DNA of 36,189 nucleotides from a virus. Location: positions 1-36,189 of the IMG/VR virus record IMGVR_UViG_3300045988_129036; one strand, given 5' to 3'. The notes under the pieces are model-generated. The model was not told where the DNA came from, made no database searches, and saw only the letters and a list, made by a program, of their open reading frames with translations. Position numbers and translations under genes: made by a program. This document shows, piece by piece, positions 1 through 36,189 of this stretch (position 1 is the first letter of the stretch; every line of letters starts with the position of its first letter).

Positions 1-56
1 TGCAGGGGGGGGTAGGTACATTTTGCAGGGGGGGGTAGGTACATTTTGCAGGGGGA
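1..56. repeat. Left-terminal tandem repeat, unit TAGGTACATTTTGCAGGGGGGGG (23 bp), about 2.4 copies. Identical to the right terminus.
   Basis: Direct reading: tgcaG8 taggtacatttt gcaG8 taggtacatttt gcaG5. The same string closes the window. Confidence 0.9.
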
Positions 57-110
57 AATAGAAGTTAAATAAATAGAAGAATCTAAATCGAAGAATCTAA
101 ATCGAAGACG
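56..110. repeat. AT-rich island carrying tandem 14-bp repeat AAGAATCTAAATCG x2 (77-104) and AAATAGAAG x2.
   Basis: Direct reading. Composition contrasts sharply with the >60% GC surroundings. Sits between the G8 repeat array and the initiator-like gene. Confidence 0.8.
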
Positions 111-213
111 CGCGCGGGGCGCGGCGTGTGAGATTGCGGGCTACCCCCCCCCGGTGCTATCCTGAAAACACCAAACCCACCCCTTGCTAAAAATCACGAA
201 AGGACAACCACCC

Positions 214-1146
214 ATGAGCATTACCGCGATCATGGCAGCAGGCTACGTTACCCACACCCCTACCGGCGAGCAGATGAAGCCGTCCAGCCTCTCAACGTTG
301 AAGGCTCTCGCTTTCTGCACCGGCGAACATTCCAATTCGTGCTACCCGTCCGTGCGCACCTTGCAGGAGATGACAGGGCACAGTGTCCGAACGATTCGCG
401 CGGCCTTGAACGACTTGGAAGAGATGGGTTTTATCACCCGCGCCGCCCGTGCTGGTACTTCCACCGTCTACGCTCTCCAGATTGATGTGATGCGAGCGCA
501 CCACCGCCGCCGCCGCTGGACTGAAACCCGTGACACTGGAAACCCGTACGCAGGCGACCATAACGCCGTAACCGTAGTAGATGAAATCCCCGTTGAGGAA
601 CAGTCGGTAAATGTCAAGCGCATCAACTTTGCAGAAGCCCCTGTAGAGACGGTAGAGGAAACCCCCGCGCCCATACCCGCTGTACCCGCACCGGTACAAG
701 CAGAACTAATCCCCGCCCCGGTCAAGAAGAAGACCAAGAAGGGCGACACTACCCCCGCGCTTGATGAAGCGTTCAACGAGTTCTACAAGCACGCGTACCC
801 GCGCAAGATGGAGCCGTTGAAGGCGCGCCGCGCGTTTGAGAAGGCTGTGAAGAACGGCGCAGACCCGCGCGACATTATCGAAGGCGCGCGCCGTTTCGCC
901 GCCGCTACCGCAACCAAGGGTAAAACCTATATCCCCTACCCGGCTTCGTGGCTAAACGCGGGCGGCTGGATGAACGAGGCGGGCGATATTGCCCCGGTAG
1001 AACCTACCCCCTGGCAGAAGAAGACAGCGCGTCTTGTGCAGTCTATGCAAGCCGCCGCCGTGGTGAATAACGCGCCCGCGCTAACCGGCGTAGCACCCGC
1101 TACCGCTCCCGCCGCTCCCCTGGCTATCGAGCCCGGTTACGTCTAA
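214..1146 (+). CDS. HTH (winged-helix) replication initiator / replisome-organizer-like protein.
   Basis: ATG 214 follows the SD cgaaaggac. N-terminal HTH motif SVRTLQEMTGHSVRTIRAALNDLEEMGFI. C-terminal motif FNEFYKHAYPRK...YPASWLNAGGWMNE, typical of phage Rep/DnaD-like C-terminal domains. The ORF track gives 184 (TTG) as an alternative start. Confidence 0.55.
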   Translation: MSITAIMAAGYVTHTPTGEQMKPSSLSTLKALAFCTGEHSNSCYPSVRTLQEMTGHSVRTIRAALNDLEEMGFITRAARAGTSTVYALQIDVMRAHHRRRRWTETRDTGNPYAGDHNAVTVVDEIPVEEQSVNVKRINFAEAPVETVEETPAPIPAVPAPVQAELIPAPVKKKTKKGDTTPALDEAFNEFYKHAYPRKMEPLKARRAFEKAVKNGADPRDIIEGARRFAAATATKGKTYIPYPASWLNAGGWMNEAGDIAPVEPTPWQKKTARLVQSMQAAAVVNNAPALTGVAPATAPAAPLAIEPGYV

Positions 1147-6377: not shown

Positions 6378-6785
6378 ATGGCAAATCAGTTTTGCAAATC
6401 AGAAACATGCTCACAGTGCGGTAACCCCTGGGAAAAACCCGATCTAGTCAATTGCCGCCGGTGCAAACAGCGCGAACTCAAACGCGCCCGCACCCGCCGC
6501 AAAAAGGCAGAGAAAGCGGATGAGCTAGAGCGTAAGCGCAAAAATAAGGAATGGGCCGCAACGCATTGCTATATTTGCGGTGCGCTTATGGACAATCCAG
6601 ACCCTAAGTGCTACCGGTGCCGCGAACGCATGAAGCGCCGCGAAAAATGGCTAGAACGCCGCGCCGAACGCATGAAACCGAACGACCTTAACAACCTAGA
6701 AGGTGTTCGCAAGTTTTTGCAGGCGCGCCGCCGCCGCCTCAACCAGAACCCGAACTACCCCCCCCTAGAAGGAATCGACATATGA
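6378..6785 (+). CDS. Basic double zinc-ribbon protein (four CxxC pairs), putative nucleic-acid-binding regulator.
   Basis: CSQC...CRRC and CYIC...CYRC. Very K/R-rich. Confidence 0.55.
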   Translation: MANQFCKSETCSQCGNPWEKPDLVNCRRCKQRELKRARTRRKKAEKADELERKRKNKEWAATHCYICGALMDNPDPKCYRCRERMKRREKWLERRAERMKPNDLNNLEGVRKFLQARRRRLNQNPNYPPLEGIDI

Positions 6786-12017: not shown

Positions 12018-12326
12018 ATGACCAACAAGCGAGATTCAAGGTACCGCGCAGCACAACAGCGATTCAAACGCTACGCCGCCGCACATAACCTACCCTGTAA
12101 CATCTGTGGACACCCCATAGATTACGCATTACCGCACAACGACGAATGGGGTAGCGTGAACATGGACGCGTTCGAGCTAGACCACCTATTCGCCGTAGCA
12201 ACACACAAAGAACTAGAACTAGACCCGGCGAACTTCCGCGCTACACATGCAGGGTGCAACCGCGCCAAAGGCAACAACCGACAGACCGCTAAAGCCAATC
12301 CCAACACCCGCGCCTGGGTACGGTAA
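12018..12326 (+). CDS. HNH endonuclease.
   Basis: CNICGHPIDY...ELDHLF...HAGCNRAKGNN gives the H-N-H catalytic spacing with Cys ligands. Sits immediately upstream of the terminase genes. Confidence 0.75.
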   Translation: MTNKRDSRYRAAQQRFKRYAAAHNLPCNICGHPIDYALPHNDEWGSVNMDAFELDHLFAVATHKELELDPANFRATHAGCNRAKGNNRQTAKANPNTRAWVR

Positions 12327-12496
12327 ACTAGAAACCGAACAAGAACACCCCAATAGAACACACATGCCAAAAGGGGTAGGGGCGGTAAAAAAATAGAACA
12401 CACCTTCGACACCCAAACCTGGGCGCAGTGTCAATCTCCCCCCGCTGGAATTTACCGGGCATCGCGCGCGCGATTATACAACATGTAGAGGTCTTG

Positions 12497-12874
12497 ATGA
12501 ATATTTGGCGTATCGGCATGGTGAAGACCGTGCAAGAATCTATCACCGCCGCCGTGAACGACGGCATTATCAAAAATGCGGATAGCGCTAAATGTGCGCT
12601 CGCTTTGAAGTATGCCGCCGCGCTGGATGAAGCCTACGATTTGTACAATAGCGACGGCGGCGACTTTGACCTATTGCTAAAGACTCTGAATATTGCAGGC
12701 CCTAACCTCAATAAGGCTTTGGACTCGCTGGGTTGCGCCCCGTATTCGCGTAAGGACATGCAGGCGCAGGCGACCGAGACCGACCGACTGGCTGAGCTTG
12801 TCGAGCAGCGCGGCAAGGACGACCCCGCGCTAGTTGCCCGTATCATGGCAGAGATTGAAGGCACGGATGAGTAA
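12497..12874 (+). CDS. Putative terminase small subunit.
   Basis: Position between HNH and TerL. ATG 12497 follows agagg. About 125 aa and helical. The ORF track offers an alternative GTG at 12428. Confidence 0.4.
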   Translation: MNIWRIGMVKTVQESITAAVNDGIIKNADSAKCALALKYAAALDEAYDLYNSDGGDFDLLLKTLNIAGPNLNKALDSLGCAPYSRKDMQAQATETDRLAELVEQRGKDDPALVARIMAEIEGTDE

Positions 12875-14462
12875 AGACTATTCCAAGTTGAAGGGTAAGG
12901 CGGTGCCCCGGCTGTGGACGCGGCCGCTTCGTGAGCTTACCCCGCTAACTACGTTCGGTTTCGAGGCTATCCGCTTTGCAGAGAATGATTTAGGGTTGCA
13001 GTTGCACCCGTGGCAGAAATGGTTTCTACTCCATTCGCTAGAGCTGGAGCCGGGCTATACGACGGGTGACGATTACCCTAAGCTACGATATAAAACCGTG
13101 GTGCTTCTTGTGTCTCGACAGAACGGAAAGTCGTTCATTCTTAGCGCCCGGCTTCTCTGGCGTATGTTCCTATGGAAGCAACGCCCCGGTCTGGACGCGC
13201 CGCTAATCCTGGGCACGGCGCATAAGCTGTCTCTAGCTGAGGAGATTCTAGACGCGGCGCACCGTACCGTGTCCCTGTCTGAGATTCACGAGCGCCTGGT
13301 TCAGAAATCCAATGTGAACGGCAACAAGTTTTTCAAGCTAGATAATGGCGCGCGCTGGAAGTGCGAGGCGGCATCAGATGACGGCGGGCGCGGTCTGTCG
13401 GTAACTGACCTAGCGTTTGATGAGCTTCGTCAGCAAAAGGACTGGAGCGCATGGGCGGCTATGACCAATACGACTAACGCGATTTGGTCTAGCCAGGTTA
13501 TCGCCGTGTCTAATGCTGGCGAGGCTAAAAGCGAGGTGTTGCGCTCGCTTAGGTCTAAAGCTCTTGAGGAGATAGAGGCGCGGGCGGCGGCAGAGAAACG
13601 CGGTGAAGAGTACGCGCCGGTTGATGCCTCACTGGGACTCTTCGAGTGGAGCGCGCCGGATGATTGCGACATTTGGGATACCGCCGGGTGGTGCCAGGCT
13701 AACCCGTCCCTGGGTTACCCTAACGCGATTACGGGTGACATGCTCGCATCGAAGGCGGCGCTAGTCGGTGAACCCGGCGCGGGTCTACCGGAACACAAAT
13801 TCAGGACTGAGAATCTTTGCCAGTGGGTGAACGTCACGGCGGACTCGCTGTTCAGCTCCGAGGAATTGGAAGCGTGTCTAGACCCTGAATCTATGATCGC
13901 ACCGGATAGCCCGGTGTATCTTTCTGTGGACGTTTCGCGTGACCGCAAGATGACAAGCCTATCAATCGCTGGTTTTCGGGACGACGGCAAACCACACGTT
14001 GAGTTCGTGACTCAACGAGCCTTTACCGAGTGGGTACCGGAATTTTTGGCTAATGGGCTTGCGTTCAAGCCCGCCGCCGTGATTATGCAGGGGCGCGGCT
14101 GTGCTGCATCGTCGCTAATCCCGTTCATTGAACAGGCTGGTACGCCGGTTGTTCGGTGTGAGGGCGGCGACCTCCCCAATGCCTACGGCTTGTTCTATGA
14201 CCGGGTGATGGAGAAGTCGGTTTCTTGGATTGAGCAGGAAACCCTAATAGGCGCGCTCTCAGAGATTCGCACCAAATCGACCGGCGACGCATTTTTGTTC
14301 AATCGCGAAAAATCCCCGGTGGACATTGCCCCGGCGTGCGCCGCCGCTTTCGCCCTATGGGGTTTGCTGAACACGGTTGCAGGGGCGAAAAAAGAAAGTG
14401 CGTATAATGAAGCTGAAATGTGGTATAAGCAAGAAGAAGATGAAGGGGGTAAATGGTGGTAG
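12867..14462 (+). CDS. Terminase large subunit.
   Basis: ATG 12867 follows gaagg. Walker A-like VSRQNGKS. Size and position fit. Confidence 0.85.
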   Translation: MSKDYSKLKGKAVPRLWTRPLRELTPLTTFGFEAIRFAENDLGLQLHPWQKWFLLHSLELEPGYTTGDDYPKLRYKTVVLLVSRQNGKSFILSARLLWRMFLWKQRPGLDAPLILGTAHKLSLAEEILDAAHRTVSLSEIHERLVQKSNVNGNKFFKLDNGARWKCEAASDDGGRGLSVTDLAFDELRQQKDWSAWAAMTNTTNAIWSSQVIAVSNAGEAKSEVLRSLRSKALEEIEARAAAEKRGEEYAPVDASLGLFEWSAPDDCDIWDTAGWCQANPSLGYPNAITGDMLASKAALVGEPGAGLPEHKFRTENLCQWVNVTADSLFSSEELEACLDPESMIAPDSPVYLSVDVSRDRKMTSLSIAGFRDDGKPHVEFVTQRAFTEWVPEFLANGLAFKPAAVIMQGRGCAASSLIPFIEQAGTPVVRCEGGDLPNAYGLFYDRVMEKSVSWIEQETLIGALSEIRTKSTGDAFLFNREKSPVDIAPACAAAFALWGLLNTVAGAKKESAYNEAEMWYKQEEDEGGKWW

Positions 14463-35423: not shown

Positions 35424-35846
35424 TTAGCGCTTCCTTTCGTTGTAGATTTGGGTGAGGTGGATGTGCACGCCTGGGTTTTCGCCGTATTCCTTGACGGCTT
35501 CTAGCTTGTTGCATCGCGCGTCATCTTCGATAATGCCGCCGCTGGTCAAGGAGTCCATGACCGCGCGGGTGAGCTTGTCGATATCGGGTTTTACGGCGTG
35601 TATCGGGTCTAGCGTGCCTTGGTAGAGCGCGCCGCTCTTAGGCTCCGTGAATACGAATCGTAGTGATGCTTGGAACGCTCCGACGATTAGCGGCGCTCCG
35701 ACCGCCTGGCTGGTCTTGAGGTGGTGTTTTCGCATGGTCTCGCGCCACGGCTTAGTTCGTGGATTATCCTCAATGACGCGCTTTCCGTAAGTGCGTTTAG
35801 AGCCTTGTGGGGCGGGTACGCCGGGTATGAAGGTTTTGTAGTGCAT
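35424..35846 (-). CDS. rusA: RusA-family Holliday junction resolvase.
   Basis: KPDIDKLTRAVMDSLTSGGIIEDDARC matches the RusA catalytic DxDN..K...D...DD motif region. 140 aa. Confidence 0.7.
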   Translation of the reverse strand: MHYKTFIPGVPAPQGSKRTYGKRVIEDNPRTKPWRETMRKHHLKTSQAVGAPLIVGAFQASLRFVFTEPKSGALYQGTLDPIHAVKPDIDKLTRAVMDSLTSGGIIEDDARCNKLEAVKEYGENPGVHIHLTQIYNERKR

Positions 35847-35905: not shown

Positions 35906-36029
35906 TAAACACTGTGAGTATAGTCACTCTTACAGAGTGAAGGGGCGCATCTCATATATGCTATAATTGACAGTATCGAGAGATAACTAAGCGGTTTTGT
36001 CCTCTTTTGTGAAGCTTTCGGGTTGGGTT

Positions 36030-36069
36030 AAATATCCCTCTAATCTACGGATTGGGGGGATATTTTTTT
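36030..36069 (+). terminator. Intrinsic terminator AAATATCCC-loop-GGGATATTT followed by TTTT, near the right terminus.
   Basis: 9-bp stem plus a U tract on the + strand. Nothing annotated upstream except a TGCTATAAT motif at 35959. Confidence 0.5.
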
Positions 36070-36123
36070 ACCCAAAAACACCCGCTACCCCCCCCTGTTT
36101 TAATACCCCTACCAAAATGTGCC

Positions 36124-36189
36124 TAGGTACATTTTGCAGGGGGGGGTAGGTACATTTTGCAGGGGGGGGTAGGTACATTTTGCAGGGGG
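36124..36189. repeat. Right-terminal tandem repeat, 23-bp unit x 2.9. The last 55 bp are identical to window positions 1-55.
   Basis: Direct reading. Confidence 0.9.

Follow-up and report, generated by a model that had tools for sequence, protein, structure and literature searches.

The IMG/VR virus record IMGVR_UViG_3300045988_129036, analysed here over its full length of 36,189 nt (the window), starts and stops within a tandem array of 23-bp, G-tract-bearing repeats that lies upstream of rep, a predicted replication-initiator gene. We consider it reasonably probable, judging from the sequence, that this array is the iteron cluster of an ordinary plasmid- or lambda-style, theta-type replication origin, and we are highly confident that its appearance at both termini is an assembly artefact, which cut an internal tandem array whose true copy number is at least four. 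Read in this way, the region is largely an ordinary iteron-style origin and is mildly unusual in its homopolymer-bearing iterons, the homopolymer in the spacer of its rep promoter and a conserved small transcript.

The end of the window (36124–36189) carries 2.87 perfect copies of the 23-bp unit TAGGTACATTTTGCAGGGGGGGG (TAGGTACATTTTGCAG8), and removal of the terminal overlap leaves a circle of 36,134 bp in which the units end in G8, G8 and G5. The inverted copies of the unit core, CTAC8TG at 36085–36097 and CTAC9 at 141–152, are exact reverse complements of CAG8TAG and G8TAG, respectively. In addition, a degenerate inverted unit, CCCCTACCAAAATGTGCCTA at 36106–36125, is 80% complementary to the unit (I1–I3, 79–80%) and adjoins the first direct unit. 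With up to two mismatches, the 13-mer CAG8TAG occurs seven times, two of these being the overlap duplicate, against 0.86 occurrences expected and in none of 100 shuffles. Four of the five unique G or C runs of at least 8 nt lie within about 250 bp, while about 1.8 such runs are expected genome-wide. The fifth, CTAC8TA at 6755–6767, is an origin-motif core with one mismatch; it stands inside the 3′ end of an open reading frame (ORF; 6378–6785), where it encodes N-Y-P-P-L, and slippage by one base would change the reading frame immediately ahead of the next ORF, whose start overlaps.

Across the junction, the gene for a RusA-like resolvase and rep are separated by about 446 bp of intergenic DNA, which contains, in order, CTAC8TG, the degenerate inverted unit, the direct units, four AAATMGAAG repeats, a GC block, CTAC9 and the start of rep (Table 1). 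The AAATMGAAG repeats, spaced by 14–15 nt, make up an AT-rich island (the motif occurs five times, with 0.44 occurrences expected), and no other 50 nt in the genome is as AT-rich as positions 56–105 (22% GC). An earlier note on this DNA, made from its letters alone, had described the repeat at both ends, the CTAC8–9 motifs on its flanks, the AT-rich island and the rep gene, and all of these are found in the sequence, the island having the lowest GC content of any 50-nt stretch. The note had also counted about three units, which is what is written in the window; this number is the assembler's minimum, however, and the true copy number is probably at least four. Of the flanking inverted C8 motifs, both of which are present, the one at 141–152 more specifically fills the spacer of the predicted rep promoter, and the full inverted unit at 36106–36125 had been overlooked.

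Table 1. Features of the origin-like region and of the terminase region, with positions in the window.
Feature	Position	Strand	Details
Exact duplicate of 36135–36189	1..55	+	k = 55 assembler overlap; matches the 'exit' branching 55-mer in the simulation
AT-rich block	56..111	+	Four 14–15-nt repeats (AAATAGAAG ×2, AAATCGAAG ×2); proposed DNA-unwinding element; no spacer to the last unit
GC-rich block	109..126	+	CGCGCGCGGGGCGCGGCG; nearly invariant among relatives
Predicted rep promoter	134..163	+	−35 TTGCGG at 134–139; 18-nt spacer with CTAC9 at 141–152; extended −10 TGCTATCCT at 155–163
rep, replication initiator ('replisome organizer')	214..1146	+	Winged helix (about 1–100), disordered linker (101–181), helical C-domain
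HNH endonuclease, terS and terL genes	12018..14462	+	HNH 12018–12326; intergenic region 12327–12427 with AATAGAACACAC ×2; terS 12428–12874; terL 12834–14462; expected physical ends
RusA-like resolvase gene	35424..35846	−	First gene of the divergent leftward early operon; left boundary of the control region
Predicted small non-coding transcript, about 96 nt	35959..36069	+	Extended −10 TGCTATAAT at 35959–35967; transcript about 35974–36069; hairpin 36030–36065; T7 run 36063–36069
Inverted unit core CTAC8TG	36085..36097	−	Between the small-transcript terminator and the array
Degenerate inverted unit CCCCTACCAAAATGTGCCTA	36106..36125	−	CCCCTACCAAAAT motif kept in array types A–C
Tandem array of TAGGTACATTTTGCAG8	36124..36189	+	Proposed iterons (predicted Rep-binding repeats); sequence, copy-number simulation and four units in relatives

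The arrangement of these elements is that of an iteron origin. Iterons are direct repeats of about 17–23 bp in helical phase, and the repeats here have a period of 23 bp, with 2.87 units in the window and four in relatives. The AT-rich repeat block adjoins them, the initiator gene lies in cis, and an inverted partial unit, CTAC9 (141–152), is placed in the rep promoter, where an autoregulatory role is predicted. In the mechanism that we propose, the winged-helix N-terminal domain of Rep would bind the 22–23-bp direct repeats, which lie about two helical turns apart, and Rep loading would open the adjoining AT-rich block of four repeats. The conserved C-terminal domain of Rep would then recruit the host replisome, and, through the inverted core between the −35 and −10 of its promoter (134–163), Rep could repress its own gene in the manner of iteron plasmids.

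A comparison with 20 related loci, whose Rep proteins are 64–97% identical, reveals a conserved order of elements. The left part consists of the minus-strand RusA gene, an extended −10 promoter (TGnTAnnnT) and, some 90 nt further on, a hairpin and T-run; the array consists of inverted copies plus two to four direct G-tract units at 22–23 bp; and the right part consists of four AT-rich repeats of 12–15 nt, the GC block, a TTGnnn-N15–18-TAnnnT promoter and rep. The sequence of the unit itself defines at least six array types, A to F, each of which directly adjoins the AT-rich block. Type A, that of the window, has the unit TAGGTACATTTTGCAG8; type B has TAGGGTTATTTTACTAG7; type C has units of the GGTAGGGGTAGGG kind, with GGTAGGGG motifs in both orientations; type D has a 46-bp unit and period; type E has TGCAAAAGTGCACCG8; and type F has GGGGGTCACCTGTTGCACCCCA, with only G5 and C4 runs. 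The period is 22 bp with four units in loci L019 and L020, and 23 bp with four units in L005, L012 and L056. Outside type A, the array segment is only 50–70% identical to that of the window; the DNA between array and rep, comprising the AT-rich repeats and the GC block, is 81–93% identical (69% in type F).

Among the proteins compared, only the N-terminal winged-helix domain of Rep diverges in step with the array type. Specifically, the identity of residues 1–100 to those of the window is 88–100% in type A, 77% in type B, 66–72% in type C, 72% in type D, 54% in type E and 48% in type F. The C-terminal domain is 86–95% identical except in L011 (66%), and the divergence of orf2, RusA, orf209 and the DUF3310 protein is independent of array type. 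An N-terminal domain that tracks the array together with a conserved C-terminal domain is the pattern expected if the former recognises the repeats and the latter contacts conserved replisome partners. The suggestion in the earlier note of an origin with iterons beside an initiator gene thus gains support both from a canonical layout that is conserved while its sequence turns over and from the tracking of array type by the Rep N-terminal domain. The cultured Arthrobacter phages RedFox and Abidatro encode distant Rep homologues, but their rep overlaps the upstream RusA gene without an intergenic region, so that they offer no comparison for the array.

The termini of the window are explained by the way in which it was assembled. 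Positions 1–55 are identical to 36135–36189, and this match of exactly 55 nt is the longest between a prefix and a suffix of the window. The number 55 is the largest default k of SPAdes and metaSPAdes for short reads, and the relatives are contigs with SPAdes-style 'NODE' names. We simulated the de Bruijn graph at k = 55 of a circular genome with three, four, five or eight perfect units. With four, five or eight units, the graph has exactly two branching 55-mers, which are window positions 1–55 and 36124–36178, and the main (long) edge plus the short arc gives 36,189 nt, base-for-base identical to the window. With three units, the graph has no branching node, and a break at the array would then be a coincidence of about 1 in 36,000. 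Since a branch arises only with at least four units, the reads of the sample must carry the period beyond the third unit, and three units is a lower bound. The contig would be a circular path through the k = 55 graph that begins and ends at the 55-mer at which the graph is made to loop by a perfect array of at least four units, and the window would represent the shortest traversal (three units) plus the 55-nt overlap, with the array internal to the genome.

The related contigs show the array in both situations. It is internal, with four units, in three contigs of about 34–36.5 kb (L003/L005, L012 and L056), in two of which G9 interrupts the perfect period, and five related contigs end inside it (those of L001/L006, L002, L004, L010 and L035). 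An identical Rep protein is accompanied by four units in one assembly and by two in an ENA scaffold and a Logan contig; unit counts in relatives are partly assembler-dependent. A direct terminal repeat of k-mer length inside a tandem repeat is not to be taken as a genome terminus, the copy number in a contig broken at a tandem array is a lower bound only, and a k-length terminal overlap carries no information on virion ends.

The circular junction considered in the earlier note is therefore borne out in the form of a 55-nt assembler overlap. Its two other proposals, terminal redundancy and a terminase recognition site, are not. The view that the array represents true terminal redundancy of the virion DNA, or else a pac or cos site recognised by the terminase, could draw on a window that starts and ends in the repeat and on repeat clusters, which are typical of the binding sites of terminase small subunits. 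It is close to refuted, and we give it hardly any credence: the overlap has the length of the assembler k-mer and is exactly reproduced by the simulation, the array is internal in the three contigs mentioned above, and the start positions of related contigs differ widely. Furthermore, the terminase genes have a conserved region of their own. An HNH endonuclease gene lies immediately upstream of terS (PF23931) and terL, and terS and terL (12428–14462) are about 12 kb from the array. The HNH–terS intergenic region (12327–12427) is strongly conserved in ten relatives, and its direct repeat AATAGAACACAC, at 12352 and 12392, flanks an indel-variable G-rich patch (GGGGTAGGGG versus G6–G9), which makes the region a candidate cos or terminase-binding region.

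An HNH–terS–terL arrangement is typical of cos-type HK97-like packaging, and its position 12 kb from the array points to this region as the expected place of cos ends. The closest cultured relative by TerL, the Arthrobacter phage RcigaStruga, has its HNH gene as the terminal gene at the right physical end of its genome. The stored part of a related scaffold, IMGVR_UViG_3300009952_000007, stops 83 nt beyond the HNH gene.

The Rep protein matches HTH_36 (3e-8) and phrog_270, a replication-initiator family (3e-29), and matches 'O-like' PHROG families weakly. Its Pfam matches are confined to HTH_36, GntR and HTH_24 at residues 33–82, with GntR scoring 24.1 bits, below the 27-bit cut-off. Close homologues are named 'replisome organizer protein' in NCBI nr, an automatic annotation. 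In the AlphaFold2 model of Rep, a winged helix predicted with confidence at the N terminus is joined by some 80 disordered residues to a helical C-terminal domain, and a search with Rep against PDB sequences returns generic winged helices only. In the scanned ORFs, we recognise no phage helicase, primase or polymerase and no P-like or DnaC-like loader; orf2 has no assigned function.

Several observations weigh against an iteron origin at the array. Neither Pfam nor the AlphaFold2 model reveals a Rep_3 (WH1–WH2) signature or a fold with two winged helices in Rep, and a Foldseek search of the model against the PDB returns generic winged helices only, at E ≥ 0.05. The DnaA box TTGTCCACA, with at most one mismatch, occurs seven times genome-wide, with 5.2 occurrences expected, and none of these lies near the array, although the consensus may not be that of the host. 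L006 has type-A units and a Rep N-terminal domain that is only 88% identical to that of the window, with changes in the wing. The co-variation of array and N-terminal domain spans about 200 bp, and linkage could contribute to it, though the stretch between them is conserved. The rep gene contains three weak 17-nt repeats (AGTAGATGAAATCCCCG-like, 76–82% identical) at 576–715, in the part encoding the disordered linker, and through this family an intragenic origin, as in lambda or SPP1, may exist. These repeats reflect a repeated E-I/T-P peptide, and the linker is indel-variable in relatives. Finally, the sign of both cumulative GC skew and cumulative AT skew changes at the array and at the junction of HNH and terS, and by bacterial convention the array is terminus-like, but an effect of gene class explains the skews equally well.

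An origin of the lambda type, inside the initiator gene, seems improbable; the array is intergenic, and rep itself holds only the weak 17-nt family in its indel-variable linker.

An operator function would account for part of the same evidence. Here Rep or another early regulator would use the array to control the divergent early promoters (those of rep, the small transcript and the RusA operon), and replication would start elsewhere, for example inside rep. The array does lie within a 446-bp divergent control region with at least two predicted promoters, one inverted core is located precisely between the −35 and −10 of the rep promoter, the N-terminal domain of Rep resembles winged-helix regulators of the GntR, ArsR and MarR type, and the weak repeats in the rep linker occupy the place where lambda-like origins lie. 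We nevertheless regard this as unlikely. Three to four head-to-tail repeats at two-turn spacing beside the most AT-rich repeat block form the layout of an origin and not that usual for operators, the direct units overlap no predicted promoter, the indel-variable rep linker is a poor origin candidate, and no separate repressor is found in the scanned ORFs.

A structural or fork-blocking element is very improbable. In this case G-quadruplexes, stems between G and C tracts or a fork-arresting protein would make the array a terminus or barrier. The skews speak for it: cumulative GC skew has its extremes at 12443–12484 and at 36059/140, and AT skew at 47–49 and 12898, so that the peak of the former and the bottom of the latter fall within about 100 nt of the array. 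At four-fold degenerate sites, however, the coding strand of early genes, whichever strand of the genome they occupy, is enriched in C and A (GC skew about −0.27, AT skew about +0.2), a bias shared by the two divergent early operons, and late genes are strongly T-rich (AT skew −0.42). Because this difference between early and late genes explains the skew, we weigh it neither for nor against an origin. The G runs are on the plus strand in most array types, and in a single-strand fold the G tracts can pair with the C tracts on either side, looping out the AT-rich block (z = −4.5), yet type F has no longer runs than G5 and C4, and the type C motifs occur in both orientations. The G-quadruplexes suggested in the earlier note gain little support here: the only such motif in the array has long loops (15 nt), and its propensity is not exceptional, a G4Hunter score of 1.72 being equalled or exceeded at several other sites, where 25-nt windows reach 1.6–2.0 in absolute value. 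Moreover, we know of no precedent for a terminus beside an initiator gene. A centromere-like partition site of a plasmid prophage, for which the resemblance of tandem repeats near a replication gene to parS or parC arrays could be cited, is hardly tenable: no ParA, ParB, ParM, integrase or repressor is found in any scanned ORF, no relative is found in 185,579 species genomes, and the gene content is that of a lytic siphovirus. A partition site and lysogeny were accordingly both rejected on the lack of par, integrase and repressor genes in the scanned ORFs.

The inverted core at 141–152 lies in the predicted rep promoter, and this promoter varies among relatives in a characteristic way. The TTGnnn and TAnnnT elements are kept while the length of the spacer tract changes: the tract is C8, C9 or C10 (G12 in L007), and the spacer is 15–18 nt. 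Near-identical relatives differ by one C in this tract (the window and L056, L012 and L054, L008 and L009, and L014, L015 and L016). The inverted partial unit is present in the promoter of array types A–D, but not of E and F. Among near-identical relatives, tract lengths range over G7–G10 in the units, C7–C9 in the left core and C8–C10 or G12 in the rep promoter. With two to four units per array, the expectation that the tracts are slippage-prone and that array length may vary holds between strains. Consensus promoter and terminator scans did not call the rep promoter, the small-transcript promoter or the terminator, since these promoters are of the extended −10 class with weak −35 boxes and the terminator loop is beyond the limits of the scan; our calls rest on conservation and compensatory changes instead.

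The transcript predicted upstream of the array points toward it and ends about 55 nt short of it. The TGnTAnnnT of its promoter is kept in all relatives, and in its terminator hairpin 5 of 13 pairs are maintained by compensatory changes across ten relatives; the fold has z = −3.9. It contains no ORF and matches no Rfam family, and, as far as these sequence features indicate, 35959–36069 is probably a small non-coding RNA. The CU-rich middle of this RNA, UUGUCCU (about 35995–36010), is complementary to the rep Shine-Dalgarno sequence AGGACAA (leader 185–222), and the two change together in relatives. Cognate duplexes of small RNA and leader have a mean energy of −16.8 kcal/mol, versus −13.9 kcal/mol for non-cognate ones, and 35 of 20,000 permutations reach the cognate value; against shuffled small RNAs, just one of the ten individual duplexes (that of L008) clearly stands out. 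The small RNA could exert antisense control of Rep translation. Upstream of its promoter, at 35909–35939, ACACTGTGAGTATAGTCACTCTTACAGAGTG is kept in almost all relatives; it contains the palindrome CACTCT-TAC-AGAGTG and TATAGT, and may be an operator or a second promoter. In L020, the whole module of motif, promoter and terminator is present in two copies about 700 nt apart.

Taken together, the tracts and the small RNA raise the idea of a hypermutable replication control, in which slippage-prone tracts in every iteron and in the rep promoter spacer would make origin firing and Rep dosage vary stochastically, and a trans-encoded small RNA, pairing at the ribosome-binding site of rep, would contribute antisense control. 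The tracts would then constitute a phage 'contingency locus', in hosts that probably do without MutS/MutL repair. We think this decidedly doubtful. Modulation of Rep by the tracts and the small RNA, if it occurred, would be an uncommon way for a phage to control replication, and none of the observations demands it.

The genome is that of a siphovirus-like actinobacteriophage, with a TerL about 40% identical to those of Arthrobacter, Microbacterium, Gordonia and Mycobacterium phages. Public metagenomes contain more than 120 Rep clusters at ≥72% identity, mostly on contigs of 35–37 kb and including one Human Microbiome Project sample, and for this Rep lineage we find no cultured relative. No Rep relative is found in 185,579 species genomes, hence no prophage copy and no host assignment, and a megablast search of 25 kb against 50,697 phage records gives no match. 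A search of the whole window against Rfam yields nothing at gathering thresholds, with only chance-level matches at the junction (E about 0.9); no tRNAs are found. The endolysin has scattered matches of only 29–41%, to Sinomonas, Streptomyces, Kocuria, Rothia and even Fructobacillus. The host is probably a member of the Actinomycetota, with a Micrococcaceae-like bacterium as our best guess (oral or skin genera such as Rothia or Kocuria are candidates), and the phage is probably lytic, to judge from a gene content of lytic siphovirus type with no integrase or repressor in the scanned ORFs. For this very common group of uncultured phages, the array provides a concrete, testable candidate origin, and the six natural array types paired with variants of the Rep N-terminal domain are a ready-made specificity-swap series.

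Several known systems share parts of this architecture. Like the direct terminal repeats of viral contigs listed as 'complete circular', the window has an identical sequence at both ends; here, however, the length of the repeat is the assembler k (55), and it stands at the graph loop of a tandem repeat and hides the repeat number. The rep promoter recalls the homopolymer-in-spacer, phase-variable promoters of Neisseria porA and opc. As in these, a tract (here C8–C10 or G12) fills the spacer between −35 and −10, and its length differs between near-identical relatives, with spacers of 15–18 nt. Unlike in these, the layout is read from a comparison between relatives, the extended −10 may relax the need for −35 spacing, and the tract also belongs to an inverted copy of the unit core, so that it may be a protein site and not a switch. 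Homopolymer phase variation in Actinomycetota is the subject of PMC10334774.

Among phage origins, those of SPP1 and lambda are the closest points of comparison. The automatic annotation of close Rep homologues is the name given to SPP1-type G38P, the 'replisome organizer', a class that binds direct repeats and recruits the helicase. SPP1 itself has oriL inside gene 38 and supplies a loader and a helicase of its own; neither an origin within the initiator gene nor a phage-encoded loader and helicase is seen here. In lambdoid phages, O proteins have an N-terminal half that diverges with iteron type and a conserved, mosaic C-terminal half, and in Rep, likewise, the N-terminal part diverges with array type and the C-terminal part is conserved, in a protein with weak matches to 'O-like' families. 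The lambda origin differs in lying inside the O gene, whereas the array is about 160 bp upstream of rep and outside any ORF, and the lambda P protein has no recognised P-like or DnaC-like counterpart here. The two nonetheless have in common about four iterons followed directly by an AT-rich tract; in lambda ori, which has four iterons and such a tract, the tract-proximal iterons suffice for unwinding (PMC7466680).

The resemblance extends to the iteron plasmids, such as RK2 (oriV/TrfA), pPS10, F (RepE) and R6K (π). Compared with these, Rep lacks the Rep_3 signature and has a single winged helix, followed by about 80 disordered linker residues and a helical C-terminal domain; no DnaA boxes are found near the array; each repeat bears a G7–G10 homopolymer; and the carrier is a phage of about 36 kb that is probably lytic. 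The π and RepE initiators repress their own synthesis, and a partial inverted repeat at the initiator promoter is common to these plasmids and the window. Also common to both are several direct repeats about 22 bp apart, a GC-rich stretch by the AT-rich element and an initiator gene beside the origin. The adjoining AT-rich element of four short repeats has its likeness in RK2 oriV, which combines iterons with a DNA-unwinding element whose four 13-mers are required for the binding of TrfA to single-stranded DNA (PMC4980987).

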